In this document: in pieces, positions 8,635-60,294 of the stretch
How positions within the stretch are numbered: position 1 is the stretch's first letter
Layout: each line of letters begins with the position of its first letter
IMG/VR virus record: IMGVR_UViG_3300048577_000559
Strand: one strand, 5' to 3'
DNA: 64,000 nt
From: a virus
The notes under the pieces: model-generated
The model's input: the letters and a program-made list of their open reading frames with translations, nothing else
The model's database searches: none
What the model was told of the DNA's origin: nothing
Translations under genes and position numbers: made by a program

Positions 8635-8737
8635 CCGTTCGGGGGTCGGCAAACCAAAGCTCTGCTCGGAGCCGGCGCGCGTCATGGTGACGAGGCGCGG
8701 CGCGCAGAGGTCACACGAGAAACTTCGGAGAGTTGCG

Positions 8738-18083: not shown

Positions 18084-18170
18084 CGGGACTCCCTCGCCAC
18101 AGGTCGGGCGGGGTCTTCGCTAAGAAGCCCCGCTCGGCCTTTCTTCGCCCTTTCTCTGTGAGGAATCACG

Positions 18171-29948: not shown

Positions 29949-30378
29949 GGCGGGTCTTCCTCCCCTTCTTGGCAGGCTTGCGGGGTGACTGGCGGGGCGA
30001 CTTGCGGACGACGGGCTGGTAGCACGGCATGTCGTTCAATTCCGCCGGGAGCAGCCCGCGCTCGATCATCTCCTCGTAATGGATCAAGGCCATCGAGTTG
30101 AACATGATCGCGGCAAGATGATCCTCGTCTCGCTTGCCCTGCTGGTACTTCATTACGTGCCGCTTGAGCGAGGCCACGCAACGCGAGAACGGCATCCCCT
30201 TTTCCCAGTTCCGCTCGGCGTACTTGGCCGCGCCCATGCGGAGCCAGTGGCCCTGCCGCTCTTCGGCGAACGGGGAGATCAGGTCGGGCCGGGGCTTGTC
30301 GTCCGCCGTGTCGCGGATCGCCATACCTTTGCCGAAGGATTGCCGTTTGCCGCTGTCGGTCATGCCGTACTTGCTCAT
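29941..30378 (-). CDS. Phage protein with a putative dATP/dGTP-diphosphohydrolase-like domain.
   Basis: RMGAAKYAERNWEKG..SLKRHVMKY..EDHLAAIMFNSMALIHYEE. Recalled as a phage nucleotide-pyrophosphohydrolase-associated domain, with low certainty. RBS GGAGAAG. Confidence 0.35.
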   Translation of the reverse strand: MSKYGMTDSGKRQSFGKGMAIRDTADDKPRPDLISPFAEERQGHWLRMGAAKYAERNWEKGMPFSRCVASLKRHVMKYQQGKRDEDHLAAIMFNSMALIHYEEMIERGLLPAELNDMPCYQPVVRKSPRQSPRKPAKKGRKTRRG

Positions 30379-33413: not shown

Positions 33414-34343
33414 ATGCCTGAGCAACTGCCCGACGAGTTCCGACTAATTTCCCTGGACCAGATTATCGAGCCGTGGGTCGTCCTGCGGGTCGTGAACCGG
33501 GAGTCCATTGAGTACCTGGAACTGCGTGATTCGTTGGCGGCAGTCGGCCCGCTGAATTCCATCTGTGTGCGACCGTCCGAGCGGCGGCCCGGCTGTTACG
33601 AAGTCGTGGACGGCCTCTATCGGTACACGGCTGCCGTGGAATTACGGCTGCCAGCGCTGCCCTGCATCGTGAAGCACAACCTCACCGACGACGACGTACT
33701 GGCGCTTCAGATTCAGGCCAATGCCTTGCGGCCCGAAACGACGGCCGTGGAGTACGCGCGGCAGATCAAGCGGATCATGGACGCTCTCACGACTCGGCAG
33801 GGCATGGACGCAACGCTGGCTGACGTGAGCAATCTGATCCACAAAGGGACGGCCTGGATCGGCGATCAACTGAGGCTGCTGAGTCTGCGGCCGGACATCC
33901 AAAAGGCCGTGGAGCGTGGCGAGATACCGCTGAAGTCGGCCTACATGCTCGCCAAGCTGCCGCGCATCCATCAGGCGCAGTTAGTGGAACTGGCGAAGAC
34001 GGTCCCGGCACGGGAGTTCGTTCCCGTGGCGGCTCGTCTGGTCAAGCAGATTCAAGAGGCCGCCCGTCAAGGGAAGCTGCATGATCTCTGCAAGGACTTC
34101 GAGCCGGTGCCTCACTTGCGGCCCTTGAAGGACCTATTGGCCGAGTACCGCGAGCATCAGCTTGGCGGTTTGGCACTCACGATGGCTGACTGCAAGACGC
34201 CGGTGGATGGCTGGTATCTGGCCCTAGAGTGGGCGCTGAACCTGGATCAGGAGAGCATCCGCGAACAACGAGAGAGAGTCCTGGCGCGGAGCCGCGCGAA
34301 TCTCTTGGAACGGAGGGTAGAGCCATGTGACGACAACGAGTGA
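33414..34343 (+). CDS. ParB/Srx-like N-terminal domain protein.
   Basis: ParB-N-like segments LELRDSLAAVGPLNSICVRP..YEVVDGLYRYTAA. Start at ATG 33414, or GTG 33387. Confidence 0.5.
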   Translation: MPEQLPDEFRLISLDQIIEPWVVLRVVNRESIEYLELRDSLAAVGPLNSICVRPSERRPGCYEVVDGLYRYTAAVELRLPALPCIVKHNLTDDDVLALQIQANALRPETTAVEYARQIKRIMDALTTRQGMDATLADVSNLIHKGTAWIGDQLRLLSLRPDIQKAVERGEIPLKSAYMLAKLPRIHQAQLVELAKTVPAREFVPVAARLVKQIQEAARQGKLHDLCKDFEPVPHLRPLKDLLAEYREHQLGGLALTMADCKTPVDGWYLALEWALNLDQESIREQRERVLARSRANLLERRVEPCDDNE

Positions 34344-35850: not shown

Positions 35851-35852
35851 CA

Positions 35853-35890
35853 CTCCAGATTCACGGCCGGTTTACGATCTCCCAGCGGAG
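35853..35890 (+). promoter_or_regulatory. Bipartite motif copy A: CTCCAGA-N16-GATCTCCCAGCGGAG.
   Basis: Exact match of both half-sites with a 16-nt spacer, 33 nt upstream of the ATG of the 35923 gene. Confidence 0.5.
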
Positions 35891-35922: not shown

Positions 35923-37617
35923 ATGCAGCCCTTCTTCGAGCAGAACAACCTGAGCCTGTATTGCGGCAACTGCCTCGACGTGCTCGCCACGCTCCCCGAG
36001 GCGTCCGTGGATTACGTCGTGACAGACCCACCCTACCTTCTCAACTTTATGGAGAAGGATTGGGACGCTGCTGGCGGCGACATCCCAACAAGCGAGTTGG
36101 TATTTCGGTCCTGGTTCGCCGGTTTGGTTGCCGGGGAGGCGTGCTTCCGAATCCACCGTGAAAAGGACGGAACCTACTACGCTTGTGAGTTCAACATCAA
36201 GATGCGTGCCGATGAAGGCCCGCTGCTGCGGGCGTTAGCTCGGCGCATCGAAGCAGGGAATGTGCAGGACATTCCGGCTGAGTCGCGCGCTGTGAATAGT
36301 GGACCAGCCGTGAAGTGGGTTGTCCACTCCCGCGAGGATTGCTGGAAGATCGCCCGCTTGTTGGACGGCACGCCACTCTATGCGAAGAAGCAACGTGAAT
36401 ACGATCTGTGGCGCAGAGCCCTGAACGTCTGGACGACAACGCCGCGTGGCAACCGTTGGTGTGGTCCGCGCGACAATTCGGCAATGGAATCCTTGTGGGA
36501 GGAGATGAAGACGCTGCGGCCGTTCGATCAGGACTTGGCTGATGGCGACTTCGATCCGCTGCGGCAACCGGATTACCTCTTCCACAATCGTTGGGCGAAA
36601 GCCTGCCTGCGCGTTGTGAAACCCGGCGGCCTCCTGCTGGCGTTTGGCGGTACACGCACCTATCACCGGCTGACTTGCGCAATCGAGGACGCCGGGTGGG
36701 AGATTCGGGACGCGCTGATGTGGCTCTATGGGCAGGGGATGCCCAAGTGCGGCGACATCGGCAAACTGATCGACAAGTCGAAAGGCGCGAAGCGCGAAAT
36801 CATCGGCGACAAGTTGGATCGTCCCGGCTACCACTTGCACGAAGGCAAGGGAAACGGGTGCTACGGCGGCGGCAACGGACTTCATGCCCCTGGCACGGAT
36901 GCTCGGCTTCGCGCCGCGCAGATAACGGCACCGGCGACTCCCGAGGGCGCGAAGTGGACCGGCTGGGCGATGGCGTTGAAGCCGGCCTGGGAGCCAATCG
37001 TCCTGGCGATGAAGCCGCTGGACGGCACGATTGCCCACAACGCCCTGACCTGGGGCGTGGCCGGCATGAACATTCAGGCTTCCCGCATCGGCAACGAGAG
37101 CACGATACGCACTCGCGGGGACAGCTTGACGGACGCCGGCTGGGCCAGCACGAACCGCTCGCCTCTGGGCGGGTCGGAATGCGGGCGATGGCCGGCGAAC
37201 TTACTGCTGGACGAGGAAGCGGCTGTTCAACTGGACACTCAAGCGGGCACGCTTACGAGCGGCACCAACTGCGTCCGCACGAAATCCGGCGACGGCTACC
37301 ACGGCCGTCTCGGTAAGGCGGGCGATGTGCAGATCAGCTACGGCGACTCCGGCGGAGCGAGCCGGTTTTTCTACTGTGCTAAAGCGACACGCACGGAGCG
37401 CGGGCCGGGCAACGACCATCCGACCGTTAAGCCCCTGGCCCTCATGGAGTACCTGTTGACGCTGCTCTCGACCCCGGATGGCGGCGTGATTCTGGACCCC
37501 TTCGCCGGCAGCGGCACCACGCTCTTGGCCGCCAAAAGCCTTGGCCGCCGTTGCATCGGCGTCGAGTTGACCGCACACAACTGCGAGATCGCCCGAGGGA
37601 GATTGCATGTCGCTTGA
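35923..37617 (+). CDS. DNA methyltransferase (N6A/N4C, beta class) with an embedded LAGLIDADG-like domain.
   Basis: Motif IV DPPY near the N-terminus, RVVKPGG downstream, and motif I DPFAGSGTT at the C-terminus. An insertion of about 180 aa contains WFAGLVAGEACF...GPLLRALARRIEAGNV...WKIARLLDGTPLYAKKQREYDLWRRAL, matching the LAGLIDADG homing-endonuclease pattern. Confidence 0.65.
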   Translation: MQPFFEQNNLSLYCGNCLDVLATLPEASVDYVVTDPPYLLNFMEKDWDAAGGDIPTSELVFRSWFAGLVAGEACFRIHREKDGTYYACEFNIKMRADEGPLLRALARRIEAGNVQDIPAESRAVNSGPAVKWVVHSREDCWKIARLLDGTPLYAKKQREYDLWRRALNVWTTTPRGNRWCGPRDNSAMESLWEEMKTLRPFDQDLADGDFDPLRQPDYLFHNRWAKACLRVVKPGGLLLAFGGTRTYHRLTCAIEDAGWEIRDALMWLYGQGMPKCGDIGKLIDKSKGAKREIIGDKLDRPGYHLHEGKGNGCYGGGNGLHAPGTDARLRAAQITAPATPEGAKWTGWAMALKPAWEPIVLAMKPLDGTIAHNALTWGVAGMNIQASRIGNESTIRTRGDSLTDAGWASTNRSPLGGSECGRWPANLLLDEEAAVQLDTQAGTLTSGTNCVRTKSGDGYHGRLGKAGDVQISYGDSGGASRFFYCAKATRTERGPGNDHPTVKPLALMEYLLTLLSTPDGGVILDPFAGSGTTLLAAKSLGRRCIGVELTAHNCEIARGRLHVA

Positions 37618-43660: not shown

Positions 43661-43888
43661 ATGCCCGCCGACAACCTGCGCTACCCTGAGTTGCCCGAGG
43701 ATCGGGATGACGACTTCGAGGGTGAAGACGATGAGTGGGACGACGACTTCGCGGACGAAGACGACCTCGACGAAGACGATCCGTACTTTGACGACGACGA
43801 TGATCTCGATGACGACGAGTGGGAGGACGAAGACGACGACTGGGACGACGAAGACGAGGAGGACGAGGAGGACGAGTACGGAGCATAG
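43661..43888 (+). CDS. Hyperacidic small protein (DNA-mimic-like, candidate anti-restriction).
   Basis: 75 aa, almost entirely D/E with interspersed W/F/Y (DDEWDDDFADEDDLDEDDPYFDDDDDLDDDEWEDEDDDWDDEDEEDEEDEY). Confidence 0.5.
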   Translation: MPADNLRYPELPEDRDDDFEGEDDEWDDDFADEDDLDEDDPYFDDDDDLDDDEWEDEDDDWDDEDEEDEEDEYGA

Positions 43889-43950: not shown

Positions 43951-44023
43951 TGTGGCGTAGTTCAGTTGGCAGAGCGGGTGCCTGTTGAGCACCGGGTCGC
44001 TGGTTCGAGTCCAGCCGCTACAG
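43951..44023 (+). tRNA. tRNA-Asn (anticodon GTT).
   Basis: Manual cloverleaf: acceptor TGTGGCG/CGCTACA, D-stem GTTC/GAGC, anticodon stem GGTGC/GCACC with loop CTGTTGA, T-arm GCTGG-TTCGAGT-CCAGC, discriminator G. Confidence 0.75.
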
Positions 44024-44044
44024 CCTCAATCTTGGAGACAGCCA

Positions 44045-44845: not shown

Positions 44846-45666
44846 AGCCGCTGGAACAGTACCAGGCGTATCCCGTCCCGGCGGCGACCATCTACTGTGA
44901 TGCCACCTTCAACTGTCGTGGCGAGTTCACGCTGCAATCCGTCAAAGAACTGGCTGAGAGCATCGCCCAGGCAGGGCGGCTGATCTGCCCGGTCGCCGTG
45001 CAACCCTGGGCGCAAGAATCTGGCTGCCAATACCGCCTGATCGTTGGGCACCGCCGCTTCCGGGCCGTGACCGAGTTCCTGCGATGGATGGAGATACCGG
45101 CCTACGTCTGCGAGGGTTTGAGCGACCATGAAGCCCGGATGCTGAACCTGGTCGAGAACCTGCACCGCAAGAGCCTGAACATCCTGGAAGAGGCCCGTGC
45201 GATTCAGAACCTTTATCCCAACGGTGCGAGCGTGCGGGAGGCGGCCCGCGAGCTAAAGCGGGACACGCGATGGGTCTGGGTCCGCGTGCGGCTGTTGCGG
45301 ATGCCCGAGGCCATTCAGCAGAAGGCCGCCGCTGGCCTGCTCTCGCAGTGGAACCTGGACACGCTGGCTGGCATCGAGTCACTCGACGAGCAGATCGCGG
45401 CTGCCGACAAGATCGCGGAAGCACGGCAGCGCGGCAAGGGAAAGTTCCTGCCGGGTCTTGCCAGGACGTATAAACGCCGCCGAAGTGTCCGTCCGCGCGA
45501 AGAGATCAACCGCATGATCGAACGGATGTTGGCCGTTGGTATCAACGGCTTGCCGCCCCGCGTGGCCGCGTGGTGCGCGGGTCAGGTCTCCGACGAGGTA
45601 TTGCTGAAAGAAATCGAGGCGGCGACTCCAGAAAGCACGACAAATCCCGATCTCCCAGCGGAGTGA
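44842..45666 (+). CDS. ParB-like nuclease domain protein.
   Basis: LIVGHRRFRA (ParB box II GxRR) and a helix-rich C-terminus. Confidence 0.6.
   Translation: MKPLEQYQAYPVPAATIYCDATFNCRGEFTLQSVKELAESIAQAGRLICPVAVQPWAQESGCQYRLIVGHRRFRAVTEFLRWMEIPAYVCEGLSDHEARMLNLVENLHRKSLNILEEARAIQNLYPNGASVREAARELKRDTRWVWVRVRLLRMPEAIQQKAAAGLLSQWNLDTLAGIESLDEQIAAADKIAEARQRGKGKFLPGLARTYKRRRSVRPREEINRMIERMLAVGINGLPPRVAAWCAGQVSDEVLLKEIEAATPESTTNPDLPAE
45626..45663 (+). promoter_or_regulatory. Bipartite motif copy B: CTCCAGA-N16-GATCTCCCAGCGGAG.
   Basis: Exact half-sites with a 16-nt spacer. Located within the 3' end of the ParB-like gene, 9 nt before the 45673 ATG. Confidence 0.45.
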
Positions 45667-45672
45667 CATCTG

Positions 45673-46032
45673 ATGAACACGCCGATCAAGCCGCCGGCTG
45701 AGCCAGGGATCGACATACGAAAACTGAAAGCGGATACCACCATCCTCTTGGAGGCTGACCCTTATCTCTATGAAATGCGGGTCATGTACCCGGTCCACGG
45801 CATTGTGGAGATCAGTTCGAGCGATCCCGCGCTGCGGGTTGCCACCGTGGGGCAAGTGCTCCACAGCTTCCATTGGTCGAGTCCGGCAGCGCCGATCCCT
45901 TCCTGGATCGGCAAGGGCCTCACCCTGGAAATCCGGTTCCGCAACGGCCTCTACCGCACGAAGCCGGTCACGGCCGCCAGCATCCAGGGAAAGCGCGAAG
46001 ACGGCAGCCGTTGGTCCTACGAGGTTTTGTAA
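45673..46032 (+). CDS. Hypothetical protein.
   Basis: 119-aa ORF upstream of the DNA polymerase. Confidence 0.35.
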   Translation: MNTPIKPPAEPGIDIRKLKADTTILLEADPYLYEMRVMYPVHGIVEISSSDPALRVATVGQVLHSFHWSSPAAPIPSWIGKGLTLEIRFRNGLYRTKPVTAASIQGKREDGSRWSYEVL

Positions 46033-48528
46033 ATGAGCAAGCATCCGCCGAAACTCTACCTCGATACGGAGACATGCGGGCTGCACAGCATGATGGTGCT
46101 GTTGCAGTACGCCGTGGAAGACGGCCTCATTGTCCTGTACGAGGTTTGGCGGCGGCCCGTCCGCGAGACGCTGGCGCTGATCGAGTGGATATGCCAGCAT
46201 ACGGTTGTGGGCTTCAATCTGTCCTTCGACTGGTTCCACGTCTGCAAAATCTACACCGTCTTCCGCCTATGCGACCCGGACTGGATACCCGAAGAGCACA
46301 TCCACGAGATCGCCATGTTGGAGCCGCAGGGGCAGGACGGCCCGTGCATCAAGCCGGCGGCGGTCCTGGACCTGATGCTCCACAGCCGCAAAGGCCCTTA
46401 CCAGTCGCTAATGGCCCGCGAGGATGTCAGGATCAAGCGGGTTCCCACGGCCCTCGCCTACGCCCTGGCCCGCGAGCTAGAGGCCCGTGTCCAGTTCGAC
46501 AACATCTACTTCGCCAAGTCGGCCGACCCGGAAGCGCCCAAGTGGCAGGTCTTCGACCGGCACGATTCTTTCGGCGATCTGGATACCGAGTTCAAGGATG
46601 TCGTCTTGAAGTTCAACCCGGCTGGCGGCCTCAAGTTCCTCGCCGAGCACGCCCTGAAGCTCAAGCCCAAGTATCACTACAAGGACGTGGAGCCGCCCCC
46701 GGCGTGGCGGCCTTACGAGTTGGGCTATGCGCCCACGGCCCTGGCCGTGTCGAGTCCCGAAAAGGACTGGGCAATCGAGGCTGACGAAGACGGCGGCAAG
46801 AAAGTCACGAAGTACGCTTGGCCAGCCGTGATTCGCCAATTCATCCACCACTGGGCCACCCGTGAAGATGCCCGCGACTATGCCAACGACGACATCGTTT
46901 ATACGCGCGAGTTGGACAAACACTTCGGCTGCCCGGAGCCGGGTGACAACGACTCCACCTTGACCTGCATGGTGGCGGCCGTCCGCTGGCACGGTTTTAC
47001 AATCAACCGCGAAGGGATCGAAGCCCTGAAGGCGAAGGCCGAGGCGGCAGTGGCGGCCAGCCCGGTGAACATTAACAAGCCGAGCGAGGTCCGCGCCTAC
47101 GTCATGGCCGCGATGGACGGCACCGAGCACCTGATTCTCGACACCTCCACGAAGAAGGCCAACCTCGAAGCGATCAGCAGGTGGGGCATCGGCCAAATGT
47201 GCCCGGCGTGCAAGGGCAAGGGCCACCTGGACAAGGAAACGGACATTTGCCCGCAGTGTAACGGTGTCTGCTACGTCGGCGAGCCGGAGCCGTGCGGCAA
47301 GTGCCAGGGCGACGACCCGCACTGCGCACGCTGCGGCGGTACGGGCTTCCTGAAGGTCGGCCGGCACCCGGCCGGTGCCCGTGCCAAGGAGATCCTCGGC
47401 GTCAAGTTCGCCGCCAAGGAAATCGAGCTATACGACAAGTTGCTCTTGGCCGGCAAGTTCCATGCCTCGTTTGTCGTGATTGGTGCCCTCTCGTCCCGCA
47501 TGGCCGGGGCGGATGGCCTCAATGCCCAGGGGATCAAGCACACCAAGGAAGTCCGGCAGACGTTCCCCTTGGCCTGGAATGGGTATCTGCTCTGCGGCGG
47601 CGACTTCAGTTCCTTCGAGGTGACAATCGCTGACGCTGTGTGCGACGACGAGGCGCTGCGCGCCGAGTTGATTGCTGGCCGGAAGATTCACGCCCTGTTC
47701 GGCATGGCGATCTTCCCCGGCACGACCTACGAAGAGGTCAAGTCGAGCGACGGCAGCACGACCAACGATATGTACACGAAGGGCAAGCAAGGCTTCTTCG
47801 GTACGATGCTTTATGGCGGCGACCATAGCACGCTGGTCAACCGTCTGGGCATCAGCGAAGAAGTCGCCAAGCACGCCATCGAGAGCTTCGGCAGCCGCTT
47901 CGTGGGCGTCAAGAAGTGGCGGAAGCGGGTCGCCGATTCGTTCTGCTCCATGACCCAGCCGGGCGGCATCGGCACCAAGGTCGTTTGGAAAGACCCGGCC
48001 GATTACGCCGAGACGATGCTGGGGTTCCGTCGCTACTTCACGCTCGAAAACCGCATTTCACGCGCGATCTTCGATCTGGCCCGCAACACGCCCAAGCACT
48101 GGAAGGACTGCAAGGTCAAGGTGGTCCGCCGTGACCGCGTGCAGACTGCCGGCGGCGCGGTCTCGTCGGCCCTCTACGGGGCGGCGTTCTCGATGCAGGC
48201 GGCCAACATGCGGGCGGCGGCGAACCATGAAATCCAGTCGCCTGGTGCCGAAATCACCAAGCACGTCCAGCGGCAGATTTGGGACTTGCAGCCGGTCGGT
48301 GTGAACGATTGGCACGTCGCCCCCATGAACATTCACGACGAGATCATGTGCGTCACCCGCCCGGACATGGTTCCAAGCGTCACCGAGGTTGTCCGCGAGT
48401 CCGTCGAGCACTTCCGTCCCTACGTGCCGTTGATCGGTATGGATTGGTGCGAGGGCATGAACAACTGGGCGGAAAAGAAATCGGGAGCCACGCAGGTCAA
48501 GATCAGAGCGCCGGAGATGATGAAGTAG
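46033..48528 (+). CDS. Family A DNA polymerase with 3'-5' exonuclease domain and a DnaJ-type zinc-finger insertion.
   Basis: Exo I YLDTETCGL. Pol motif A GGDFSSFE, motif B K..GFFGTMLYGG, motif C NIHDEIM. Inserted (CxxCxGxG)x4 module CPACKGKG, CPQCNGVC, CGKCQGDD, CARCGGTG at 47199-47345. Confidence 0.8.
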   Translation: MSKHPPKLYLDTETCGLHSMMVLLQYAVEDGLIVLYEVWRRPVRETLALIEWICQHTVVGFNLSFDWFHVCKIYTVFRLCDPDWIPEEHIHEIAMLEPQGQDGPCIKPAAVLDLMLHSRKGPYQSLMAREDVRIKRVPTALAYALARELEARVQFDNIYFAKSADPEAPKWQVFDRHDSFGDLDTEFKDVVLKFNPAGGLKFLAEHALKLKPKYHYKDVEPPPAWRPYELGYAPTALAVSSPEKDWAIEADEDGGKKVTKYAWPAVIRQFIHHWATREDARDYANDDIVYTRELDKHFGCPEPGDNDSTLTCMVAAVRWHGFTINREGIEALKAKAEAAVAASPVNINKPSEVRAYVMAAMDGTEHLILDTSTKKANLEAISRWGIGQMCPACKGKGHLDKETDICPQCNGVCYVGEPEPCGKCQGDDPHCARCGGTGFLKVGRHPAGARAKEILGVKFAAKEIELYDKLLLAGKFHASFVVIGALSSRMAGADGLNAQGIKHTKEVRQTFPLAWNGYLLCGGDFSSFEVTIADAVCDDEALRAELIAGRKIHALFGMAIFPGTTYEEVKSSDGSTTNDMYTKGKQGFFGTMLYGGDHSTLVNRLGISEEVAKHAIESFGSRFVGVKKWRKRVADSFCSMTQPGGIGTKVVWKDPADYAETMLGFRRYFTLENRISRAIFDLARNTPKHWKDCKVKVVRRDRVQTAGGAVSSALYGAAFSMQAANMRAAANHEIQSPGAEITKHVQRQIWDLQPVGVNDWHVAPMNIHDEIMCVTRPDMVPSVTEVVRESVEHFRPYVPLIGMDWCEGMNNWAEKKSGATQVKIRAPEMMK

Positions 48529-48926
48529 TGGGCGACATCCGGCGGCCAAAACACAGCCAAGAGTGGCACATCCAGCAAGCGCTGATTGCCTTCCTCAAGA
48601 TTCGAGGCTGGCACGTCGAGCGGATGATCGGCAATGCCTTTCAAATGGGCGTGCCCGATCTGTTCATCGCACACCCGAAATGGGGACAGCGTTGGATCGA
48701 CGTGAAGCGACCAGGCAAGAACTACAGCTTCACCAAGGCCCAAAAGCTGAAATGGCCCGTGTGGGAAGCCTTCGGCATCGGCATCTGGATACTCACTGCC
48801 GCCACACAAGAAGAATATGACAAGCTGTTCGCGCCACCCAACTGGCGCGCCTACTGGAAAGCGTCGTGGGGTCAGGTTCCTGACATCGACGCCCTGCTGG
48901 ACGAGCTAGACCGCGAAGGCTGGTAG
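48528..48926 (+). CDS. VRR-NUC (PD-(D/E)xK) nuclease domain protein.
   Basis: GVPDLFIAH..WIDVKRPG..FTKAQ matches the VRR-NUC signature. GTG start overlapping the polymerase stop. Confidence 0.55.
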   Translation: MGDIRRPKHSQEWHIQQALIAFLKIRGWHVERMIGNAFQMGVPDLFIAHPKWGQRWIDVKRPGKNYSFTKAQKLKWPVWEAFGIGIWILTAATQEEYDKLFAPPNWRAYWKASWGQVPDIDALLDELDREGW

Positions 48927-48979
48927 CTCGCCTCTTTCAACCCGCTAAGAACCGCCAACTGCGGAGAGACCCTGCGCCT

Positions 48980-49477
48980 ATGGAACTGCAACAACGCCCC
49001 GAACCGTGGATGTGTATGCCTCTGGCCTTCGCAATGGCCTTGGACACGCCCGTCGCCGACCTGCTCGCGGCCATCGGCCATGACGGCAGCGAGATCGTCT
49101 TCCCCAATCTGCCCGAGCCGCTGTGCCGACGCTGTTTCCACATCCAAGAGCTAATCCAAGTCGCCCTGGCTCGCGCCTTTGCCGTCACGCCGGTGGAACT
49201 GTTCCCCGTCCTACAACCCACGGAAGGCGGGCCACATAAGGCGGTGCTCTATGCGGACAACAACTGGCGACGGTTCGAGGAGACGATCCGGGCGAGTCGC
49301 GGCGTGATTGACGGCACCGGCGCACGCTTCGGCCACACAGTCGCCTACGACCACGGCCACATCTACGACCCCAAGGGGTCGGCCTACGACTACTCCCGCC
49401 TCGCCTGCGAGGCCCACCAGTTCTACACCCGCTGTGCCTGGCGGATTGATCCCGTTGGAGAACGCACCTGTGAGTAA
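48980..49477 (+). CDS. Putative papain-like cysteine peptidase (C39-like).
   Basis: Cys in EPWMCMPLAFAMAL and His in GHTVAYDHGHIYDP. Confidence 0.3.
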   Translation: MELQQRPEPWMCMPLAFAMALDTPVADLLAAIGHDGSEIVFPNLPEPLCRRCFHIQELIQVALARAFAVTPVELFPVLQPTEGGPHKAVLYADNNWRRFEETIRASRGVIDGTGARFGHTVAYDHGHIYDPKGSAYDYSRLACEAHQFYTRCAWRIDPVGERTCE

Positions 49478-50153
49478 CCAGTACAACGAGAAGCTAGTTG
49501 CCGGTCTGCACCATGCGACCAACGACGAGACATGGACTGCTGAGAAGAACGCCGACTTGCATCCGCTCGTTGCGGCGGGCGACAAGGAAGCTCGTGAGAC
49601 CATGATTAACGGCAACATGCCGTTAGTGCTCTCGAAGGTGGAAGCCTTCATCCGTTCGTTCCCAAGTATCGCACATCTCCGCGATGATTTGGTCAGTGCT
49701 GGATGCGTCGGCCTGGTCAAAGCTGTCAACAAAATGGCTCGCGGCGAGGGGCCGCGCAACACCGATCCCGTTGCGCCAACTGATTTCATTGGCATGTGGA
49801 TCAATCGTGAACTTGGGGAATTGGTTGAGGCAGAACATACCATTCGATTGCCTCCTCGTTCCAAGTATCGCGCCCGTGCGAATGGACAAGAGCTAGAAGC
49901 GCCCGAGGTCTGCAACGTCATTCCCGAACGGTTCGCGGTTCCCTCCTGCGAAGAGGAACTGGAAATCCGCGATCTGATCGACTCGTGTTGCGTCTGTGAA
50001 GACGAGCGGACGTTTGTTGCCATGCGGGAAGCGGGCTACACCCTCGTCGAGATTGGGGCCGCCATTGGCAAATCGCGCATGGCCACACAACGCATGGCCA
50101 AGCAGATTGACGCCCGCGTGCAGCGCAAACTGGAGGCCCTGCGCAACGCATGA
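49470..50153 (+). CDS. Sigma-70-family sigma factor (phage-encoded, ECF-like size).
   Basis: A region-2-like segment, and a region-4 HTH YTLVEIGAAIGKSRMATQRMAKQI near the C-terminus. GTG start, 227 aa. Confidence 0.5.
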   Translation: MSNQYNEKLVAGLHHATNDETWTAEKNADLHPLVAAGDKEARETMINGNMPLVLSKVEAFIRSFPSIAHLRDDLVSAGCVGLVKAVNKMARGEGPRNTDPVAPTDFIGMWINRELGELVEAEHTIRLPPRSKYRARANGQELEAPEVCNVIPERFAVPSCEEELEIRDLIDSCCVCEDERTFVAMREAGYTLVEIGAAIGKSRMATQRMAKQIDARVQRKLEALRNA

Positions 50154-50758
50154 TCCGACGCATCTTCTTAGACCTGGACGACGTGTGCAATACGCTGGCA
50201 CCTTTCGTGCTGCACTCGGTCGGTTGCGGCATCGGTCCAAGCGACTACGCTCGCTACCCGCGTGAACACGGCTTCAACATCTCGGCCGCCGCCAACGCCA
50301 TGTTGGGTGAGCCGCGCTACACCCCGGCCACGCTCTGGGCGTCAATCCCGCGTTCCCTGTGGGTCAAGGTGCCCGAATCGGACTTCTTCGCTTGGCTGTT
50401 GGACACCTGCGCTCAAGCCGTTGGCCGCGAGAACGTGTGCATCGCCACCTCGCCCACGAAAGACCCCGATTGCCTGGCGGGAAAGCTGGAGTGGATTCAC
50501 GACCACTTTCCCGAGTGGATGCACCGGCAGTACGCCATCACGCCCCGGAAGCATCTTCTCGCTCGTCCTGACTCCCTGCTGATCGACGACTACAGCGAAA
50601 ACATCGAGCGGTTCGAGGCCCACGGCGGCTACGCCATCACCGTCCCAAGGCCCTGGAATGAACATTGGGCTTCAGACCCTCGCGGGTACTTGGAAGAAAA
50701 ACTCGCGGTGGCACTCCAGAAGTCACCCGGATTTACGATCTCCCAGCGGAGAGACTGA
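50150..50758 (+). CDS. 5'(3')-deoxyribonucleotidase-like HAD hydrolase (NT5C family).
   Basis: N-terminal DxD motif IFLDLDDV, as in NT5C and phage dNMP nucleotidases. Confidence 0.5.
   Translation: MIRRIFLDLDDVCNTLAPFVLHSVGCGIGPSDYARYPREHGFNISAAANAMLGEPRYTPATLWASIPRSLWVKVPESDFFAWLLDTCAQAVGRENVCIATSPTKDPDCLAGKLEWIHDHFPEWMHRQYAITPRKHLLARPDSLLIDDYSENIERFEAHGGYAITVPRPWNEHWASDPRGYLEEKLAVALQKSPGFTISQRRD
50714..50751 (+). promoter_or_regulatory. Bipartite motif copy C: CTCCAGA-N16-GATCTCCCAGCGGAG.
   Basis: Exact half-sites with a 16-nt spacer, within the 3' end of the NT5C-like gene and 31 nt before ATG 50783. Confidence 0.45.
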
Positions 50759-50782: not shown

Positions 50783-50949
50783 ATGCACGTCGTCGAGTTC
50801 ATTCCGGCCGATTGGTTGGAGCGGGCCGCTTGCTGGCCCGGCCTGACGGTCTACAGCCGGCCGGTGGCAGTCGAGCGACGGGTCCGCACGCGGCGGACAG
50901 CCGACGTGGAATTGCTGCTCCGATCCCTGCTTTCGGTACAGGTGCAATG
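50783..50949 (+). CDS. Small ORF (55 aa) downstream of motif copy C, possibly a leader peptide.
   Basis: ATG 50783, MHVVEFIPADWLERAACWPGL. Not in the supplied track. Confidence 0.2.
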
Positions 50950-52092
50950 ATGGCGCGACGCGAGTTTCTGCAATTGGCCGATCACTACGACCCGCGCAAG
51001 CATAGCGTGGCGGGTTGGTTTGTATCGGAAAAGCTAGATGGCACTCGCTGCTTTTGGGACGGCGGACTGACCCGTGGCCTGCCCACTGAGGAGGTGCCCT
51101 GGGCCTCGATCATCGACCCCAAGACCGGCCAGAGGAAGGCCAAGATCAAGCCCGTAGCGACCGGCCTGTGGAGCCGCTACGGCAATCCAATCATGGCCCC
51201 CGACTGGTGGCTCAATCGGCTGCCGGCTTGCCCACTGGACGGCGAGTTGTGGGCTGGACGGGGCAAGTTCCAACTTTGCCGGAGCATCTGCGGCGGCGAC
51301 ACCCCGGACGAGCGATTCAGCCAGATCGTCTTCGCGGTGTACTCCACACCGCCGCTCGCCGCGATCTTTAGCACCGGCGAGATCAAGAACGCCAACATGG
51401 TCTGCAACGTCGATTACCTCACGATTGAAGCGTGGATCAGACAGCGCCTCAATTCCCGAGGCGAGCGATTCGAGGGCGTCCCTGTTCCCAAGCGCTGCCT
51501 GGGCGACCATTTCAAGTTCCTGACCGCCGGCCAGACATTCGGCAAGGAAGTGGCCGTGCTCAGCGAGGCCCTGGAGAACACGGATGCCTCGATTTGCTAC
51601 CTCCACCGGCAAACAAAGTTGATCGACATTCCGGCCGAGGCCAACGACCAGGTGGAATCCTACTTGCAACGGGTGCTCGACCAGGGCGGCGAGGGCGTTG
51701 TGATTCGCAGCCCCGACGCCATTTGGATGCCGAAGCGCCACCGCAGCATCCTCAAGTACAAACCGTTCCAGGACGCCGAGGCCCGTGTGGTTGGCTTCAC
51801 CAGCGGCCGTGAGACGAACAAGGGCAGCCGGCTCTTGGGCAAGATCGGTGCCCTGATCGTGGACTACTGCGGCAAGCGATTGGAGCTAGCGGGCCTGACC
51901 GACACCGAGCGGGAATTCGCTGATCCGATGGCCCGCGATTGGGCCACCAACAACCCTGGCATCGACACTCCCTACTGGGTTGAAGGCAAGCAATTCAAGA
52001 AGGGCCAGATGGTCACGTTCAAGTACCGCGAACTGACCGACGACGGCGTTCCCAAAGAGGCGCGCTACTGGCGGCGGAGGGATTCCGAGTGA
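50947..52092 (+). CDS. ATP-dependent DNA ligase.
   Basis: Adenylation motif I SEKLDGTRC (KxDG). The length of about 381 aa fits a minimal phage ligase with OB domain. Confidence 0.75.
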   Translation: MMARREFLQLADHYDPRKHSVAGWFVSEKLDGTRCFWDGGLTRGLPTEEVPWASIIDPKTGQRKAKIKPVATGLWSRYGNPIMAPDWWLNRLPACPLDGELWAGRGKFQLCRSICGGDTPDERFSQIVFAVYSTPPLAAIFSTGEIKNANMVCNVDYLTIEAWIRQRLNSRGERFEGVPVPKRCLGDHFKFLTAGQTFGKEVAVLSEALENTDASICYLHRQTKLIDIPAEANDQVESYLQRVLDQGGEGVVIRSPDAIWMPKRHRSILKYKPFQDAEARVVGFTSGRETNKGSRLLGKIGALIVDYCGKRLELAGLTDTEREFADPMARDWATNNPGIDTPYWVEGKQFKKGQMVTFKYRELTDDGVPKEARYWRRRDSE

Positions 52093-53684: not shown

Positions 53685-54188
53685 ATGAAACTGCGACTTC
53701 GCCACTGGGTAAGGCTGACGCTGAGGGTGGCTCTCTACTCGCTCATCGTGCAACTCAGCATCCCGATCATTGGCGGCATGTACTACAGCATGACCGGCGA
53801 CCACCGCGGCGAGCAGAGGTATCTCGACCGCTCCGTCGCCCACCTGAAACGGATGCGGGCCTTCTGCGACGACCCCGATCTGCAAAGCGTCTTGGATTAC
53901 ACGATTCGGCGCTACCACAAGGTCGGCGCGTGGGACGTGATGTTCATGCCGCTGACCGGGCCAGTGATTAACCCCGGTGGCGAGGCGGGCAAGTCCATTG
54001 GCTGCAACTGCCCCTGGTGTCCGGGCGTGACGCTCGACACCTGCCTCTTGATCGACTTCGCGCCCGAGGAAACCGCCATCGTGCTGGCGCACGAGGCCCT
54101 GCACGACTACTGGCCCTTCTTCGGCCACGACCATATCAACGCCCGCGAAAAGAGACTCCAAGAGCTAAGTGATGCCGTCCGCCGGTAA
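53685..54188 (+). CDS. Putative zinc metallopeptidase-like protein (HExxH).
   Basis: HEALHD motif and N-terminal hydrophobic segment. Confidence 0.35.
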   Translation: MKLRLRHWVRLTLRVALYSLIVQLSIPIIGGMYYSMTGDHRGEQRYLDRSVAHLKRMRAFCDDPDLQSVLDYTIRRYHKVGAWDVMFMPLTGPVINPGGEAGKSIGCNCPWCPGVTLDTCLLIDFAPEETAIVLAHEALHDYWPFFGHDHINAREKRLQELSDAVRR

Positions 54189-54696
54189 GTACCGCACGAT
54201 CATCGCCGATCCGCCGTGGACCCCGACGCTCAACGCGGGGCACCCGTCCTTCAAGGCGGGGCCGCAGCGGCAGTACCGGACCATGAGCGTGCGGGACATT
54301 TGCAGCCTGAAGGTGCCGGCCGCCAAGCAAGCCCACTTGTGGCTGTGGGTGGTGAACCAGCACGTCGATTGGGGCTACGAGGTGGCGCGGGCCTGGGGCT
54401 TCGAGCCGTGGAACGTGCTCACTTGGGCCAAGCCTGGCCTGGGCGTGGGCCGCTTCCAGTGCAATAGCGAGCACGTCCTGGTCTGCCGCAAGGGGCCACG
54501 CCACGGCAACCCCTTCGGCCCGACCGGCGGAACGTGGTTCGCATGGCCGCGAGGCCGTCACAGCGAGAAGCCCGAGGAGTTCTACCGGCTCGTGGAGTCG
54601 GCGTCTCCCGGCCCTTACCTGGAAATGTTCGCCCGCACCCGCCGATCTGGCTGGGACGCCTTCGGCAACGAAGTGGAAGGTTCGATCTGCTTATGA
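54169..54696 (+). CDS. MT-A70-family N6-adenine DNA methyltransferase.
   Basis: DPPW catalytic motif (IIADPPWTP) and MT-A70-like length. Confidence 0.7.
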   Translation: MMPSAGKYRTIIADPPWTPTLNAGHPSFKAGPQRQYRTMSVRDICSLKVPAAKQAHLWLWVVNQHVDWGYEVARAWGFEPWNVLTWAKPGLGVGRFQCNSEHVLVCRKGPRHGNPFGPTGGTWFAWPRGRHSEKPEEFYRLVESASPGPYLEMFARTRRSGWDAFGNEVEGSICL

Positions 54697-55340
54697 GCTA
54701 CACCCGCGAACAGATTGCCGCTGCCCTGGACTTGGCCGTCTTGAAGCCGACCGCCACGGCCGCCGACGTGCGCGCCGCTTGTGCCCTGGCCGTCGCCCGG
54801 CAGATCAAGTCGGTCTGCGTTGCCCCAGTCTGGGTGCCGATGGCGAGCGACTTGTACGGCAACGTGTGCGCCATCATTGCCTTTCCCCACGGAAACACGC
54901 TGCCCGAGGCCAAGTACGCCGAGGCCCTAGCGGCAATGGACTGTGGGGCGAAGGAACTTGACGTGGCGGTCAACTACGGCCGGTTTCTCGACAGCGGCCA
55001 CCACGACGCCTTCTGGGACATCGCCGCAATCGTCAAGGCGGCCCACCCACGCGGCGTGCTCGTCAAGGCGATTCTGGAAACCTGCTATTACACGCCGGAC
55101 CAAATCCGCGAAGCCTGCCGCCTGTGTGTCAAGAGTGGTGTGGACTTCGTGAAGACATCGACCGGCTTCGGACCCGGCGGGGCCACGCCCGAAGCCGTCA
55201 AGACCATGTTGGAAGCCGTCAATGGCGAGGCCCAAGTGAAGGCCAGCGGCGGCATCAAGACCTACTCCGACGCCGCCCGCTACCTGGACCTGGGCTGCAC
55301 TCGCCTCGGCTCGTCCCGCTACTTGGAGCTGCTGCCGTGA
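54693..55340 (+). CDS. deoC: Deoxyribose-phosphate aldolase.
   Basis: DLAVLKPTAT, SVCVAP, Schiff-base Lys context DFVKTSTGF and VKASGGI, typical of DeoC. Confidence 0.75.
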   Translation: MSYTREQIAAALDLAVLKPTATAADVRAACALAVARQIKSVCVAPVWVPMASDLYGNVCAIIAFPHGNTLPEAKYAEALAAMDCGAKELDVAVNYGRFLDSGHHDAFWDIAAIVKAAHPRGVLVKAILETCYYTPDQIREACRLCVKSGVDFVKTSTGFGPGGATPEAVKTMLEAVNGEAQVKASGGIKTYSDAARYLDLGCTRLGSSRYLELLP

Positions 55341-55351
55341 AGAAGTCCAAG

Positions 55352-55951
55352 ATGAACCGACTGGCCTGGAACCGGGGCTACCTCTGCGGCGCAATGGACC
55401 GCGTGACCGATGGCGGCGTCGGCTGGCGTCAAGACCTGATCGAGAGCCTGAAGGACTTGAACATTCTCTGGCTCGACCCGACGCGCAAGCCAATCGACAT
55501 AGGCGTGGAAGACCTGGAGAACCGCGCCCTGCGCCACAAGGCAAAGCGGGCCGGCGACTTCGAGTTCGTCCGCAACCAGATGAAGCAGATTCGTCCCGTC
55601 GATCTGCGGATGGTGGACATCTGCGACTTCCTCGTGGTGAACCTCGATCTGCAAGTCCACGCCACGGGGACATACGAAGAACTGTTCTGGGCGAACCGGA
55701 TGAAGAAGCCGGTCCTGGTGCGCGTGGAGCAGGGAATCGAACACACCCCGGACTGGCTCTTCGGCACGTTGCCCTTCGAGATGATCTTCTCGACGTGGGA
55801 CGAAGTGAAGACCTATCTGCGGCACGTCGCCCACGATCCGGTGATCGACCGGCTCAACCGCTGGTACTTCTTCAACTGGATGGGCGAGAACTGCATCGAG
55901 TCAGCCAATCATGGCGTCGGCCGCAAGATCGTCAGGAGGGTGAAGAAGTGA
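55352..55951 (+). CDS. Nucleoside 2-deoxyribosyltransferase / dNMP N-glycosidase-like protein (NDT/DNPH1 family).
   Basis: N-terminal GYLCGAMD resembles the NDT-family YLAGP motif. About 200 aa. Confidence 0.45.
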   Translation: MNRLAWNRGYLCGAMDRVTDGGVGWRQDLIESLKDLNILWLDPTRKPIDIGVEDLENRALRHKAKRAGDFEFVRNQMKQIRPVDLRMVDICDFLVVNLDLQVHATGTYEELFWANRMKKPVLVRVEQGIEHTPDWLFGTLPFEMIFSTWDEVKTYLRHVAHDPVIDRLNRWYFFNWMGENCIESANHGVGRKIVRRVKK

Positions 55952-58435: not shown

Positions 58436-58686
58436 AGATTCTCGTCTACCACGGCAGACATGGCGACGACTATTTCCTCGTCGATACGCCCGAACGACTG
58501 CAAGCAGCCATGCGTCAGTTGTTCAAGCAACTGGACGACTGGCACTGCTACGACCGCGATGAAGAAGGCGTGATCGAGGCGCGAGCCGGCGACGCGCGTG
58601 CAATCCGTTGGCTGCTCGACCGCCATAACGGCTACGAGTACGAAGGCTGGAACATCATCGAGGCCATTGATCCATGCACACCCTGA
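58432..58686 (+). CDS. Hypothetical protein.
   Basis: 84-aa ORF starting MKILVYHGRHGDD. Confidence 0.3.
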   Translation: MKILVYHGRHGDDYFLVDTPERLQAAMRQLFKQLDDWHCYDRDEEGVIEARAGDARAIRWLLDRHNGYEYEGWNIIEAIDPCTP

Positions 58687-59426
58687 TTAACGCCGACTGT
58701 CTCGATTACCTCAACGGCAACCGCCAGACTTGGACCACGATCTTGGCGGACCCGCCGGACAACATCGGCCTGAGCTACCAGAGCTACAAGGACAGACTGC
58801 CCGACCACCAATACGTGGACCTGCTGGAGACCTGGTTGCACCTGTTTGTTCACAGGGCCAAGACCGTTTGGTTCAGCTTCAACGCGAAGTGGACCTTCGA
58901 GGTTGGCCGCATCGTCGCCGAGATCGTCCGGCGGACCAGCGGCTTGGAAGCCAAGCCCTGCGTCCAGACTTTCACCTTCGGGCAACATTGCCACCACGAC
59001 CTGGGCAACAACCACCGGCCGCTCTGGCGGCTGCGGTGGTGTGACGCCCCGCTGCGTCCCGATGCGATCCGCGTGCCGAGTTGGCGGCAGGAGAACGGCG
59101 ACAAGCGGGCTGACCCGCGCGGGCGGGTGCCCGGCGACGTGTTCGACTTCACTCGCGTCGTGGGCAACAGCAAGCAGCGCCGTCCGTGGCACCCGACGCA
59201 ACTCAACGAGGGGCTGGTCGAGCGGTGCGTGAAGTTCACCACGCCAGAAGGCGAGTCAGTCCTAGACCCCTTCGGCGGCACGGGCACGACGCTCCGCGTT
59301 TGCCGGCCGCTGGGCTACCCCTGCACCCTAATCGAGATCGACCGGGGCTACTGCGACAAGATCGTCGAAGAGCACGGCATGAAGCGGTCGGAGTACATCC
59401 ATCGCGCCTTGTGGGAGGTCGAATGA
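58674..59426 (+). CDS. DNA methyltransferase (beta class, variant motif IV DPPD).
   Basis: ILADPPDN near the N-terminus, and motif I DPFGGTGTT near the C-terminus. Confidence 0.6.
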   Translation: MHTLINADCLDYLNGNRQTWTTILADPPDNIGLSYQSYKDRLPDHQYVDLLETWLHLFVHRAKTVWFSFNAKWTFEVGRIVAEIVRRTSGLEAKPCVQTFTFGQHCHHDLGNNHRPLWRLRWCDAPLRPDAIRVPSWRQENGDKRADPRGRVPGDVFDFTRVVGNSKQRRPWHPTQLNEGLVERCVKFTTPEGESVLDPFGGTGTTLRVCRPLGYPCTLIEIDRGYCDKIVEEHGMKRSEYIHRALWEVE

Positions 59427-59662: not shown

Positions 59663-60294
59663 TGCTCCGCATCACCATCGAGCTAGCACCCTGGGGCGAC
59701 GAGTCCTGCGCCAAGGTTATCGCCACCGGCAAGATCGTCAACACCGGCACCGGCAGTCCCACCCAGGGCAGCTACCGCATCGAACTGTGCGATGCCGCCG
59801 GCCGCAAGTGGAGAAGCGGAACCATCGCCGGTTTCCCCGAAAGCGGCTGCTCGCGTGGGACTTGCTCAATCGGGCCTTGGGAAAACTTGTCGGCAGCCAA
59901 AATCCCACTCCAGATTCACGGGCGTTTTGCGATCTCCCAGCGGAGAGGCAACACCAACCGACATAGGGAGCCACCCATGAGAACGCTAGTGCCCAATCTG
60001 AACGCCATCCTCAAGCGCCATGAGATTCACCCGAAGTTCTGGCCGGAGTTTCACAGCATGGTGGAAGACCGGCAACTGCCCAGTAAAGAACTGTGGACCC
60101 GCATGAACTACGTGGCCAACTACCGGGCCGCCCGCAGCGAGATAGCGGCCGAGTTGTCCAAAGGGTGGGAAAAGCAATTTCCGCCCGACGACTACGAGGT
60201 GCCCGAAGGCTACGACTTCGACATGCCGGCCGAGTACGAATCGTTGACTCCCGAAGACATCGCACTGGCGACATCGGGCGGGTGCGCCGTCTGA
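59662..60294 (+). CDS. Hypothetical protein. The ORF carries bipartite motif copy D in-frame, so it may be two genes (second start at 59977).
   Basis: Continuous ORF of 210 aa. An internal ATG at 59977 follows GGGAG, 31 nt after the motif. Confidence 0.3.
   Translation: MLRITIELAPWGDESCAKVIATGKIVNTGTGSPTQGSYRIELCDAAGRKWRSGTIAGFPESGCSRGTCSIGPWENLSAAKIPLQIHGRFAISQRRGNTNRHREPPMRTLVPNLNAILKRHEIHPKFWPEFHSMVEDRQLPSKELWTRMNYVANYRAARSEIAAELSKGWEKQFPPDDYEVPEGYDFDMPAEYESLTPEDIALATSGGCAV
59908..59945 (+). promoter_or_regulatory. Bipartite motif copy D: CTCCAGA-N16-GATCTCCCAGCGGAG.
   Basis: Exact half-sites with a 16-nt spacer. The extended similarity to copy A covers ATTCACGG.CG.TTT.CGATCTCCCAGCGGAG. 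Confidence 0.45.

Follow-up and report, generated by a model that had tools for sequence, protein, structure and literature searches.

Does the 227-residue protein encoded at 49470-50153 of IMG/VR virus record IMGVR_UViG_3300048577_000559 act as a sigma factor and, if it does, which promoters would it read? The 64,000 nucleotides analyzed from this record, referred to throughout as the window, represent the genome of a siphovirus-like phage. A first-pass annotation, made from the letters of the sequence, had described the protein as a sigma-70-family sigma factor of the size of extracytoplasmic function (ECF) sigma factors, occurring together with a repeated promoter-like motif. We are highly confident that the protein belongs to the sigma-70 family, with sigma2 and sigma4 domains and without a sigma3 domain. 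Its probable role is that of a middle-gene sigma factor in a Planctomycetota phage or prophage of siphovirus-like type, with four copies of a two-block motif in the window (P1 to P4) as its cognate promoters.

The family assignment is supported by several kinds of search. The NCBIfam model TIGR02937, for the sigma70-ECF superfamily, aligns to the protein from end to end (residues 40-221 to model positions 1-165, E 1.7e-8) and matches 30 of 33 family members, the best at E 3.6e-12. Models of the SigF/SigG N-terminal region match residues 16-89 (E 5e-11) and find 31 to 33 of the 33 members, while PHROG 351, "RNA polymerase sigma factor", matches the window protein at E 6e-9. When a profile built from the 33 members was searched against PDB, all 60 of the matches listed were sigma factors, with SigF (1l0o_C, E 3.9e-12) the best and SigK, RpoD, RpoS and SigA following. 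An hhalign comparison to a canonical 256-residue SigF/G-like sigma factor, one that contains Pfam regions 2, 3 and 4, returned 98% probability (E 1.6e-13), aligning regions 1.2-2.4 and 4.1-4.2 and leaving a gap of about 55 residues at region 3. The AlphaFold model is all-helical, with a predicted local distance difference test score (pLDDT) of 80.5, and the top 50 Foldseek matches to it in PDB, RpoS, sigma32, SigB and sigmaE among them, are all sigma factors (probability 1.00, E from 8e-5). Homology evidence for sigma4, to which the full-length Foldseek matches also contribute, is weaker than that for sigma2; Sigma70_r4 and Sigma70_r4_2 match nine and five of the 33 members, with best E-values of 4.5e-5 and 1.4e-4. 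TIGR02937, PHROG 351, the PDB profile search, hhalign and Foldseek thus all say sigma factor, as the first-pass annotation had proposed, and structure prediction, which it had named as a check, gives the same answer.

The gene and the parts of its product are as follows, with the evidence for each in parentheses.

49470..50153, + strand: sigma-70-family sigma factor gene, 227 amino acids, GTG start, TGA stop (open reading frame and sequence, homology, structure)
49515..49835, + strand: residues 16-122, region 1.2-like helix and sigma2 domain, regions 2.1-2.4 (PDB profile, hhalign, conservation, AlphaFold)
49836..49964, + strand: residues 123-165, linker replacing the sigma3 domain (hhalign gap, pLDDT, conservation)
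49965..50147, + strand: residues 166-226, sigma4 domain, regions 4.1-4.2, with helix-turn-helix (HTH) TLVEIGAAIGKSRMATQRMAKQI (hhalign, TIGR02937, AlphaFold)

SigF, SigK, RpoD and RpoS align over family-profile positions 17-132 in the PDB profile search. Within sigma2, helices are modeled at residues 24-35, 39-48, 50-63, 65-90 and 102-122 (block-mean pLDDT 83-93 over residues 21-120), with a variable loop at residues 91-101. The most conserved stretch of the family, the near-invariant HLRDDLxSAxxxGLxKAVN, lines up with region 2.2, the core-binding region, of SigF and SigK, and a stretch FIGMWINRE sits at the region 2.3/2.4 position. Neither the AlphaFold model nor the hhalign alignment shows a sigma3 domain folded between region 2.4 and region 4.1. 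The linker found there, about 43 residues long, contains one short helix (129-137) followed by a segment modeled at low confidence (pLDDT below 50 at 155-161) that holds the near-invariant motif IPERFxVPSYxxELE, with P152, E153, R154, P158, S159 and E165 each at least 90% conserved; this segment may be the equivalent of the sigma3.2 finger or linker. In sigma4, where hhalign aligns residues 166-220 to region 4 of the canonical sigma factor, helices are modeled at 166-173, 177-187, 192-199 and 203-226 (block-mean pLDDT 89-92 over residues 171-220). The C-terminal HTH reported by the first-pass annotation, YTLVEIGAAIGKSRMATQRMAKQI, is present at residues 184-207. A pair of cysteines opens the domain, C173 being invariant and C174 at least 90% conserved, often as CCxC; to our knowledge, neither this Cys pair nor the conserved motif in a disordered linker is typical of known sigma factors. 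The build is an ECF-like two-domain architecture on a SigF/G-like (group-3) sequence, and the description "ECF-sized" holds for the architecture (sigma2 plus sigma4, no sigma3), although the nearest sequence relatives are of the group-3 SigF/G type.

The reading frame is intact, 227 codons and a stop, and the coordinates previously assigned to it are exact. The sequence GGAG lies 9 nt upstream of the GTG start. That GTG overlaps the stop codon of the upstream gene, 48980-49477, in a GTGA-type overlap, the stop of the sigma gene overlaps the ATG of the NT5C gene (50150) as ATGA, and the gene is translationally coupled to both neighbors. The GTG start at 49470 is favored because more than 100 metagenome homolog clusters, 221-230 residues in length, begin at the same shared N-terminus, M/V-S-N-Q-Y-N; a longer, TTG-initiated frame from 49308 lacks such support. 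Third-position GC is 0.65 in the sigma frame (49308-50153) versus 0.85 in PolA, 0.77 in the ligase and 0.75 in NT5C, a lower value in line with faster divergence or exchange between phages.

Candidate targets for the sigma factor come from a repeat search of the window, which found four copies of an element of about 40 nt, ACTCCAGA-N15-CGATCTCCCAGCGGAG, all on the + strand. The 16-mer CGATCTCCCAGCGGAG occurs at 35875, 45648, 50736 and 59930, exactly four times and always on the + strand, with ACTCCAGA preceding each copy at a fixed 15 nt; we estimate that a particular exact 16-mer would turn up by chance about 3e-5 times in 128 kb, the length of both strands together. The repeated promoter-like motif of the first-pass annotation is therefore real, and comparative evidence extends it. 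The hexamer CGATCT begins at position 23, counted from the A of ACTCCAGA, and is followed by a conserved tail, CCCAGCGGAG. Judged from sequence, the spacing is the geometry of a sigma-70-type promoter, a hexamer, 17 bp and a second hexamer (6+17+6). The four copies and the putative transcription unit that contains the sigma gene are these.

35852..35890, + strand: promoter-like motif P1, ending 33 nt before the ATG (35923) of a DNA methyltransferase gene
45625..45663, + strand: promoter-like motif P2, in the last codons of a ParB-like gene, ending 10 nt before the ATG of g45673
50713..50751, + strand: promoter-like motif P3, in the last codons of NT5C, ending 32 nt before an ATG at 50783
59907..59945, + strand: promoter-like motif P4, ending 32 nt before an ATG at 59977 that is itself preceded by GGGAG
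45673..50758, + strand: putative sigma-containing transcription unit, from P2 to P3, six genes tightly packed or overlapping (map of open reading frames)

Helicase and exonuclease genes come after the methyltransferase gene at P1. P2 heads the run g45673, PolA, a 133-residue open reading frame (ORF), a C39-like peptidase, sigma and NT5C. Downstream of P3 is a conserved 55-residue ORF (50783-50950) that overlaps the ligase ATG (50947) as ATGA, and the ATG at 59977 after P4 starts a 105-residue gene and a run of small + strand genes reaching the end of the window. Both P2 and P3 fall within coding sequence, though not in the same reading frame; the motif is therefore conserved at the nucleic-acid level. 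The ParB-like gene whose last codons contain P2 (44842-45666) is the second of two separate such genes, the other lying at 33414-34343. Between 28 and 46 kb, canonical sigma-70 promoters and intrinsic terminators are not enriched over shuffled sequence.

Related phages show the motif in a changing form at constant positions. The gene order exonuclease, metallophosphatase, ParB, g45673, PolA, 133-residue ORF, 165-residue gene, sigma, NT5C (not in every case), ligase and g52190 is found in almost all of 44 related loci, here given L numbers. Among these loci, the exact window motif is confined to the four closest relatives; three close-relative contigs carry four copies each, and the remaining IMG/VR contigs with the motif have a single copy, except for one that has two. 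Because the exact motif is absent from more distant relatives, each genome was searched for a repeated motif of its own, by an all-against-all scan for a bipartite pattern (9 + 14 positions), a plain 36-nt identity scan being too noisy at 62% GC. Each of twenty related lineages has a two-block motif of its own, with the 17-bp geometry unchanged and at matching genome positions: before the g45673 homolog, after NT5C and before the g59977 homolog. The motif at the P2 site is lineage-specific in those relatives that allowed P2 and P3 both to be paired, and the g59977 homolog is directly preceded by the lineage motif in L002, L006, L007, L016, L023, L026 and L041. In L025 the motif also occurs before methyltransferase and helicase genes, the P1 position, and at three further sites; a search of 2.9 million IMG/VR viral contigs found its 16-mer six times in the 69.5-kb contig of L025 itself, a single time in one related contig and in no other. 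Seven of the lineage motifs read as follows.

L017: upstream block ACTCCAGAAA, downstream block CGTCATAGC
L016: upstream block ACTCCAAA, downstream block CAGTCTATC
L004: upstream block ACTCGGG, downstream block CGTTGTCCCT
L031: upstream block CTCTAAGT, downstream block TGATGTGTCAGATG
L018: upstream block GAAAACCAG, downstream block CAACTCTT
L021: upstream block AAAACCAG, downstream block CGTCTCTCTT
L025: upstream block GCGCA.AA, downstream block CGACTCTCT

When the 20 lineages were aligned in one register, and a lineage was scored at a position if all its own copies agreed there, agreement reached at least 85% of lineages at positions 1-6 and 75-100% at positions 20-31 (100% at positions 23-26 and 28), compared with 10-50% across spacer positions 9-19 and 5-55% in the flanks. 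Substitutions between the window and its close relatives number 0 of 216 in the two blocks, 8 of 135 in the spacer and 47 of 540 in the upstream flank; the two blocks appear to be under purifying selection. The spacer is 1 nt longer in the copy upstream of the g45673 homolog in L041 (P2, 5641) and in L043 (P2, 5895) than in other copies from the same genome, and an occasional extra base of this sort is promoter-like.

Does the sigma factor change together with the motif? Of the nine conserved genes, sigma has diverged furthest in 29 of 42 loci, with identities of 52% against a neighbor median of 88% in L039, 56% against 87% in L011 and 60% against 86% in L007, and the motif differs between phages whose proteins otherwise share 85-90% identity. 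Across the 20 lineages, similarity of the -10-like block correlates with sigma identity when four neighbor genes are controlled for (partial Mantel r 0.37, p 0.0015), a moderate and correlative effect, whereas the same block shows no correlation with neighbor identity once sigma is controlled for (r 0.02, p 0.41). Sigma and the -10-like block thus seem to change together between related phages, such that each lineage would have its own sigma/promoter pair. We infer the link between sigma and motif from three things: the geometry of the motif and its placement upstream of operon starts, the fast change of both sigma and motif, and the partial Mantel result. A residue-to-base code connecting the region-4.2 helix to the -35-like block was sought and not found, similar helices occurring with different blocks and the reverse.

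If this link holds, early transcription from host-type promoters would yield some sigma factor, which would bind host core RNA polymerase through region 2.1-2.2 and direct it to ACTCCAGA as the -35-like element and, across a variable gap of 15 nt, to CGATCT as the -10-like element with its tail. P1 to P4 would then switch on genes for DNA modification, replication and nucleotide metabolism and a set of small genes, all of them as middle genes. With P2 in front of the sigma gene's own operon, sigma would reinforce its own expression by positive feedback. Late genes may be read through from P4 or may use another signal. Read-through is conceivable because all genes from P4 to the end of the window are on the + strand and the window is about one genome length, judged by a 62.7-kb relative contig.

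Several results weigh against a middle-gene sigma factor with P1 to P4 as its promoters. In the search with Pfam profiles that the first-pass annotation had proposed, the window protein alone stays below threshold for both Sigma70_r2 (E 0.074, 13.3 bits against a cut-off of 24) and Sigma70_r4 (E 0.06, 13.3 bits against 24.1), an outcome that, read to the letter, is the one the first-pass annotation had named as refuting its reading, although the more sensitive searches all point to a sigma factor; the TIGR02937 score of the window protein alone, 34.3 bits, is likewise under the 42.9-bit cut-off. Divergence accounts for these sub-threshold scores, which do not speak for another fold. Neither sigma nor its region 4 co-varies with the -35-like block (partial r -0.09 and -0.29), which instead tracks general relatedness (r 0.35, p 0.01), and ACTCC is common to lineages with very different region-4.2 recognition helices. 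Some of the registers used in the Mantel tests were assigned manually, and the lineages are not independent of one another. Downstream of the -10-like hexamer, the conserved stretch is longer than is usual in a promoter, and the GGAG within the conserved tail may simply be a ribosome-binding site. No copy of the motif was found ahead of the terminase and structural genes in the window or in the related contigs examined, which leaves late transcription unexplained, and a search for a second repeated bipartite motif serving the structural module gave coding repeats in tail genes only. The host part of the reading is weakened in that it rests on contigs of metagenome-assembled genomes (MAGs).

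A stronger form of the proposal is more doubtful, although it is worth stating: sigma and the -10-like half of the promoter might form a rapidly diversifying specificity pair, in which each phage's middle genes are read by its own sigma alone and the pair acts as a determinant of incompatibility. At least about 15 distinct -10 types exist among otherwise syntenic genomes, including some that are 85-90% identical in their other genes. If the proposal is true, the sigma/promoter pair would provide a transcriptional "immunity" or incompatibility between relatives that co-infect or are resident, and the family would amount to a natural library of orthogonal sigma/promoter pairs.

Could the protein be a genuine sigma factor while something else reads the four motifs, either a host sigma factor (housekeeping or ECF) or another phage protein that binds them, such as a ParB-like protein or a methyltransferase? 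The -35-like ACTC(C/T)A recurs in lineages with greatly different region-4.2 helices and tracks phylogeny rather than sigma, some lineages have ECF-looking motifs of the form GAAAACC-N17-CGTCT that a host ECF sigma factor could in principle read, and the two ParB-like genes in the window supply possible binders. We nevertheless consider this explanation unlikely. The -10-like block differs between phages with 85-90% identity elsewhere and follows sigma, not neighbor identity. Unlike host promoters, the motif is identical in all copies of a genome and essentially confined to that genome within IMG/VR; unlike parS sites, it is not palindromic, and it keeps its 6+17+6 geometry just upstream of start codons.

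A role directed at the host, in which the protein is an auxiliary factor mimicking a host alternative sigma and drives no phage genes, would fit its best sequence matches, the cellular SigF, SigG, SigK and RpoS models. Host-directed phage sigma factors have been reported (PMC9429907), and such a role has been proposed for the sporulation-like sigma factors of Firmicutes phages. The sigma gene here belongs to a tightly packed and universally syntenic replication operon, not to a variable accessory region, it is evolving faster than any of its neighbors, which is unexpected for a mimic of a conserved host factor, and a phage-restricted promoter-like motif diversifies with it. Planctomycetota, moreover, are not known to form endospores, which counts against a sporulation-like sigma aimed at the host. 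We regard this role as very unlikely.

Less probable again is an RNA-level function of the 39-nt element, whether in processing, attenuation, translation or coupling, in place of a promoter function. The Shine-Dalgarno-like GGAG of the conserved tail and the complementarity of CACTCC and GGAGTG at the ends of P1 would suit such a role. The four copies, however, have no consistent fold and no stability beyond that of shuffled sequence (z +0.19, +1.92, -0.94 and -0.81), the complementarity of the ends is absent from P3, P4 and other lineages, and a variable spacer between two fixed blocks, occasionally one base longer, is promoter-like. Least credible of all is an HTH transcription regulator that binds DNA and has lost the binding of core enzyme: for all the sub-threshold Pfam scores, and the several members that match generic HTH_23, HTH_IclR and HTH_38 models as well as or better than Sigma70_r4, the protein is not merely such a regulator, because the core-binding region 2.1-2.4, whose absence the first-pass annotation had named as grounds for doubt, is present and is the best-conserved part, the strongest similarity lying in regions 1.2-2.4 (core binding and -10 recognition) and not in the HTH, with a region 2.2 signature, D-L-x3-G-x2-G-L-x-K-A-V, near-invariant across the family.

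For the preferred reading, that of a middle-gene sigma factor with its own promoters, the closest functional analogs appear to be the sigma factors of Salmonella phage 7-11 and of phiEco32. The genes for 7-11 gp47 (SaPh711_gp47) and phiEco32 gp36 are very divergent sigma genes located among genes for DNA polymerase and nucleotide metabolism (PMC8948821; PMC12276001). The 7-11 protein has region 4, uses the host core enzyme and has bipartite promoters, GTAAtg-(16)-aCTA, and between 7-11 and phiEco32 the promoter positions are conserved while promoter sequences and sigma factors have diverged (PMC8948821). The likeness consists in a divergent sigma among replication genes and in conserved promoter positions with diverged sequences, seen here across 20 lineages. 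The differences are that no close sequence relationship to the window sigma is detectable, that 7-11 and phiEco32 are podoviruses of Enterobacteria, whereas the window comes from a siphovirus-like phage, presumably of Planctomycetota, whose sigma function is predicted, that their promoters serve late (and middle) genes, whereas no copy turned up here in front of structural genes, and that no co-factor resembling gp79 was identified here.

Among cellular sigma factors, group 3 (SigF, SigG, SigB) provides the best sequence matches, over regions 1.2, 2.1-2.4 and 4. The window sigma differs from that group in having no sigma3 domain (about 55 residues), in scoring 34-42 bits where the curated family cut-offs are 234-457, and in being borne by a phage from a non-sporulating host phylum. 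With ECF (group 4) sigma factors it shares a length of about 200-230 residues, the order sigma2, linker, sigma4 and an end-to-end alignment to TIGR02937, and a promoter-like motif upstream of the sigma factor's own operon resembles autoregulation. It departs from them in the N-terminal, region-1.2-like helix that aligns to SigF/G, in a TIGR02937 score below cut-off, and in its coupled neighbors, a papain-fold peptidase and NT5C, with no adjacent anti-sigma recognized. Typical ECF promoters have AAC in the -35 element and CGT in the -10 element. The window blocks, ACTCCAGA and CGATCT, do not match this pattern and contain no AAC; L018, L020 and L021 carry GAAAACCAG, CGT is found at -10 in L003, L004, L017 and L021, and blocks resembling AAC...CGTC occur in some lineages. 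Bacillus phage SPO1 gp28 and gp33-34 and T4 gp55 are sigma-family proteins that retarget host RNA polymerase to middle or late promoters departing from the host consensus. T4 gp55 has no region 4 and requires gp33 and the sliding clamp, whereas the window sigma has both domains; SPO1 uses a cascade of sigma factors, whereas a single sigma was found here. SPO1 is mentioned in PMC13401047.

A phage sigma factor with its own promoters is a textbook strategy, and the basic finding is unsurprising; "uncommon but known", as the first-pass annotation put it, is a fair statement of its novelty. What is new is that no other gene of a conserved replication module evolves as fast as sigma, that the -10-like element changes with sigma, and that candidate promoters can be read directly for about 20 lineages. 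The viruses and transcription signals of Planctomycetota are almost unstudied. If confirmed, the system would serve as a test bed for the evolution of sigma/promoter specificity, would supply orthogonal parts and would offer phage annotation in Planctomycetota its first candidate promoter models.

The sigma family itself is undescribed, large and mostly without Pfam annotation. Of 106 matches at E<=0.001 in the first homolog search, 103 have no Sigma70 Pfam domain, and the number of representatives (50% clusters) in an exhaustive profile search was 124 at E<=1e-30 and 493 at E<=1e-10; family lengths run from 199 to 240 residues. A megablast search of the 12 kb around the sigma gene found no match among GenBank phages, and tblastn with the sigma protein returned just weak N-terminal matches in unannotated gut phage contigs. 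Homologs occur in 35 IMG/VR contigs and in MAG contigs of Thermoguttaceae, Planctomycetaceae, Pirellulales and Planctomycetia. Five of those homolog-bearing MAG contigs reach 137 kb to 1.07 Mb, a sign of integrated prophages and of a host among the Planctomycetota. We found no paper on sigma factors of Planctomycetes phages, and a survey of phage sigma factors makes no mention of Planctomycetes (PMC9429907). One homolog, in L042 (Thermoguttaceae MAG JBEKZV010000052.1, 10001-10564), is listed at 265 residues with a C-terminal extension and 42% identity; it lies apart from any syntenic phage genes, about 7 kb upstream of a tandem duplication of about 340 nt (approximately 17600-18160).

The immediate neighborhood of the gene was only partly as previously described. 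Downstream, NT5C (Pfam E 9e-11) and an ATP-dependent DNA ligase were correctly named. Upstream, after the family-A DNA polymerase, genes preceding sigma had been called nucleases, a label that could not be confirmed for the 133-residue ORF, which has no match in Pfam or PHROG, and that does not suit the adjoining gene.

48980-49477, + strand: 165-residue gene, its stop overlapping the sigma start, product with a papain/C39-like peptidase fold (AlphaFold, Foldseek)

This 165-residue protein has no sequence-level match in Pfam, PHROG or PDB. Its AlphaFold model (pLDDT 83.7, predicted template modeling score 0.78) resembles the C39 double-glycine peptidase domains of PCAT1 and ComA and also staphopain (Foldseek E 5e-4 to 1e-3). 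Cys12, His119 and Asp130 are invariant, and the gene is kept directly upstream of sigma in all syntenic loci. An anti-sigma factor was considered for this position and rejected, because by its fold the modeled protein resembles C39 peptidase domains and staphopain, and no anti-sigma-like gene was recognized in the conserved block around sigma. A protease gene coupled to a sigma gene recalls the processing of pro-sigma factors; no link between the two was seen.

In the rest of the genome almost all genes lie on the + strand. Besides the terminase and the major capsid protein, the structural genes include a portal and a 1270-residue tape-measure protein, together with tail-fiber-like paralogs. 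The + strand replication region encodes two ParB-like proteins, DNA methyltransferases, a helicase, an exonuclease, a metallophosphatase and the family-A DNA polymerase, and nucleotide metabolism is represented on the same strand by NT5C, the ATP-dependent ligase, a DeoC aldolase and a deoxyribosyltransferase-like protein. One tRNA-Asn is present. Principal landmarks are listed here.

3057-4730: terminase large subunit
8684-10132: major capsid protein
29.3-33.6 kb, - strand: primase cluster
29941-30378 (- strand), 50150-50758, 54696-55340, 55352-55951, 35923-37617, 54172-54696 and 58674-59426: nucleotide salvage and DNA modification genes

The salvage and modification set is unusually rich. 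It comprises a MazG-like pyrophosphohydrolase, the NT5C 5'-nucleotidase, a DeoC-family aldolase and a nucleoside 2-deoxyribosyltransferase-like protein, along with DNA methyltransferases, at least one of them supported by a hidden Markov model (35923-37617, PHROG 67) and two further candidates having DPPW/DPPD-type motifs. Such a set could point to modified DNA bases. Elsewhere in the + strand replication region, at 43706-43887, degenerate GAC/GAA repeats encode an Asp/Glu-rich stretch directly upstream of the tRNA-Asn(GTT) gene (43951-44025). The tail-fiber-like genes are three consecutive paralogs of about 320-355 residues with similar N-termini (18171-21117), followed by an 834-residue gene with internal repeats of about 120 and 243 nt (21121-23625). 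Just upstream of the terminase, at 2506-2850, lies a thioredoxin-family gene (Pfam E 1.3e-12) whose product has a signal-peptide-like N-terminus.

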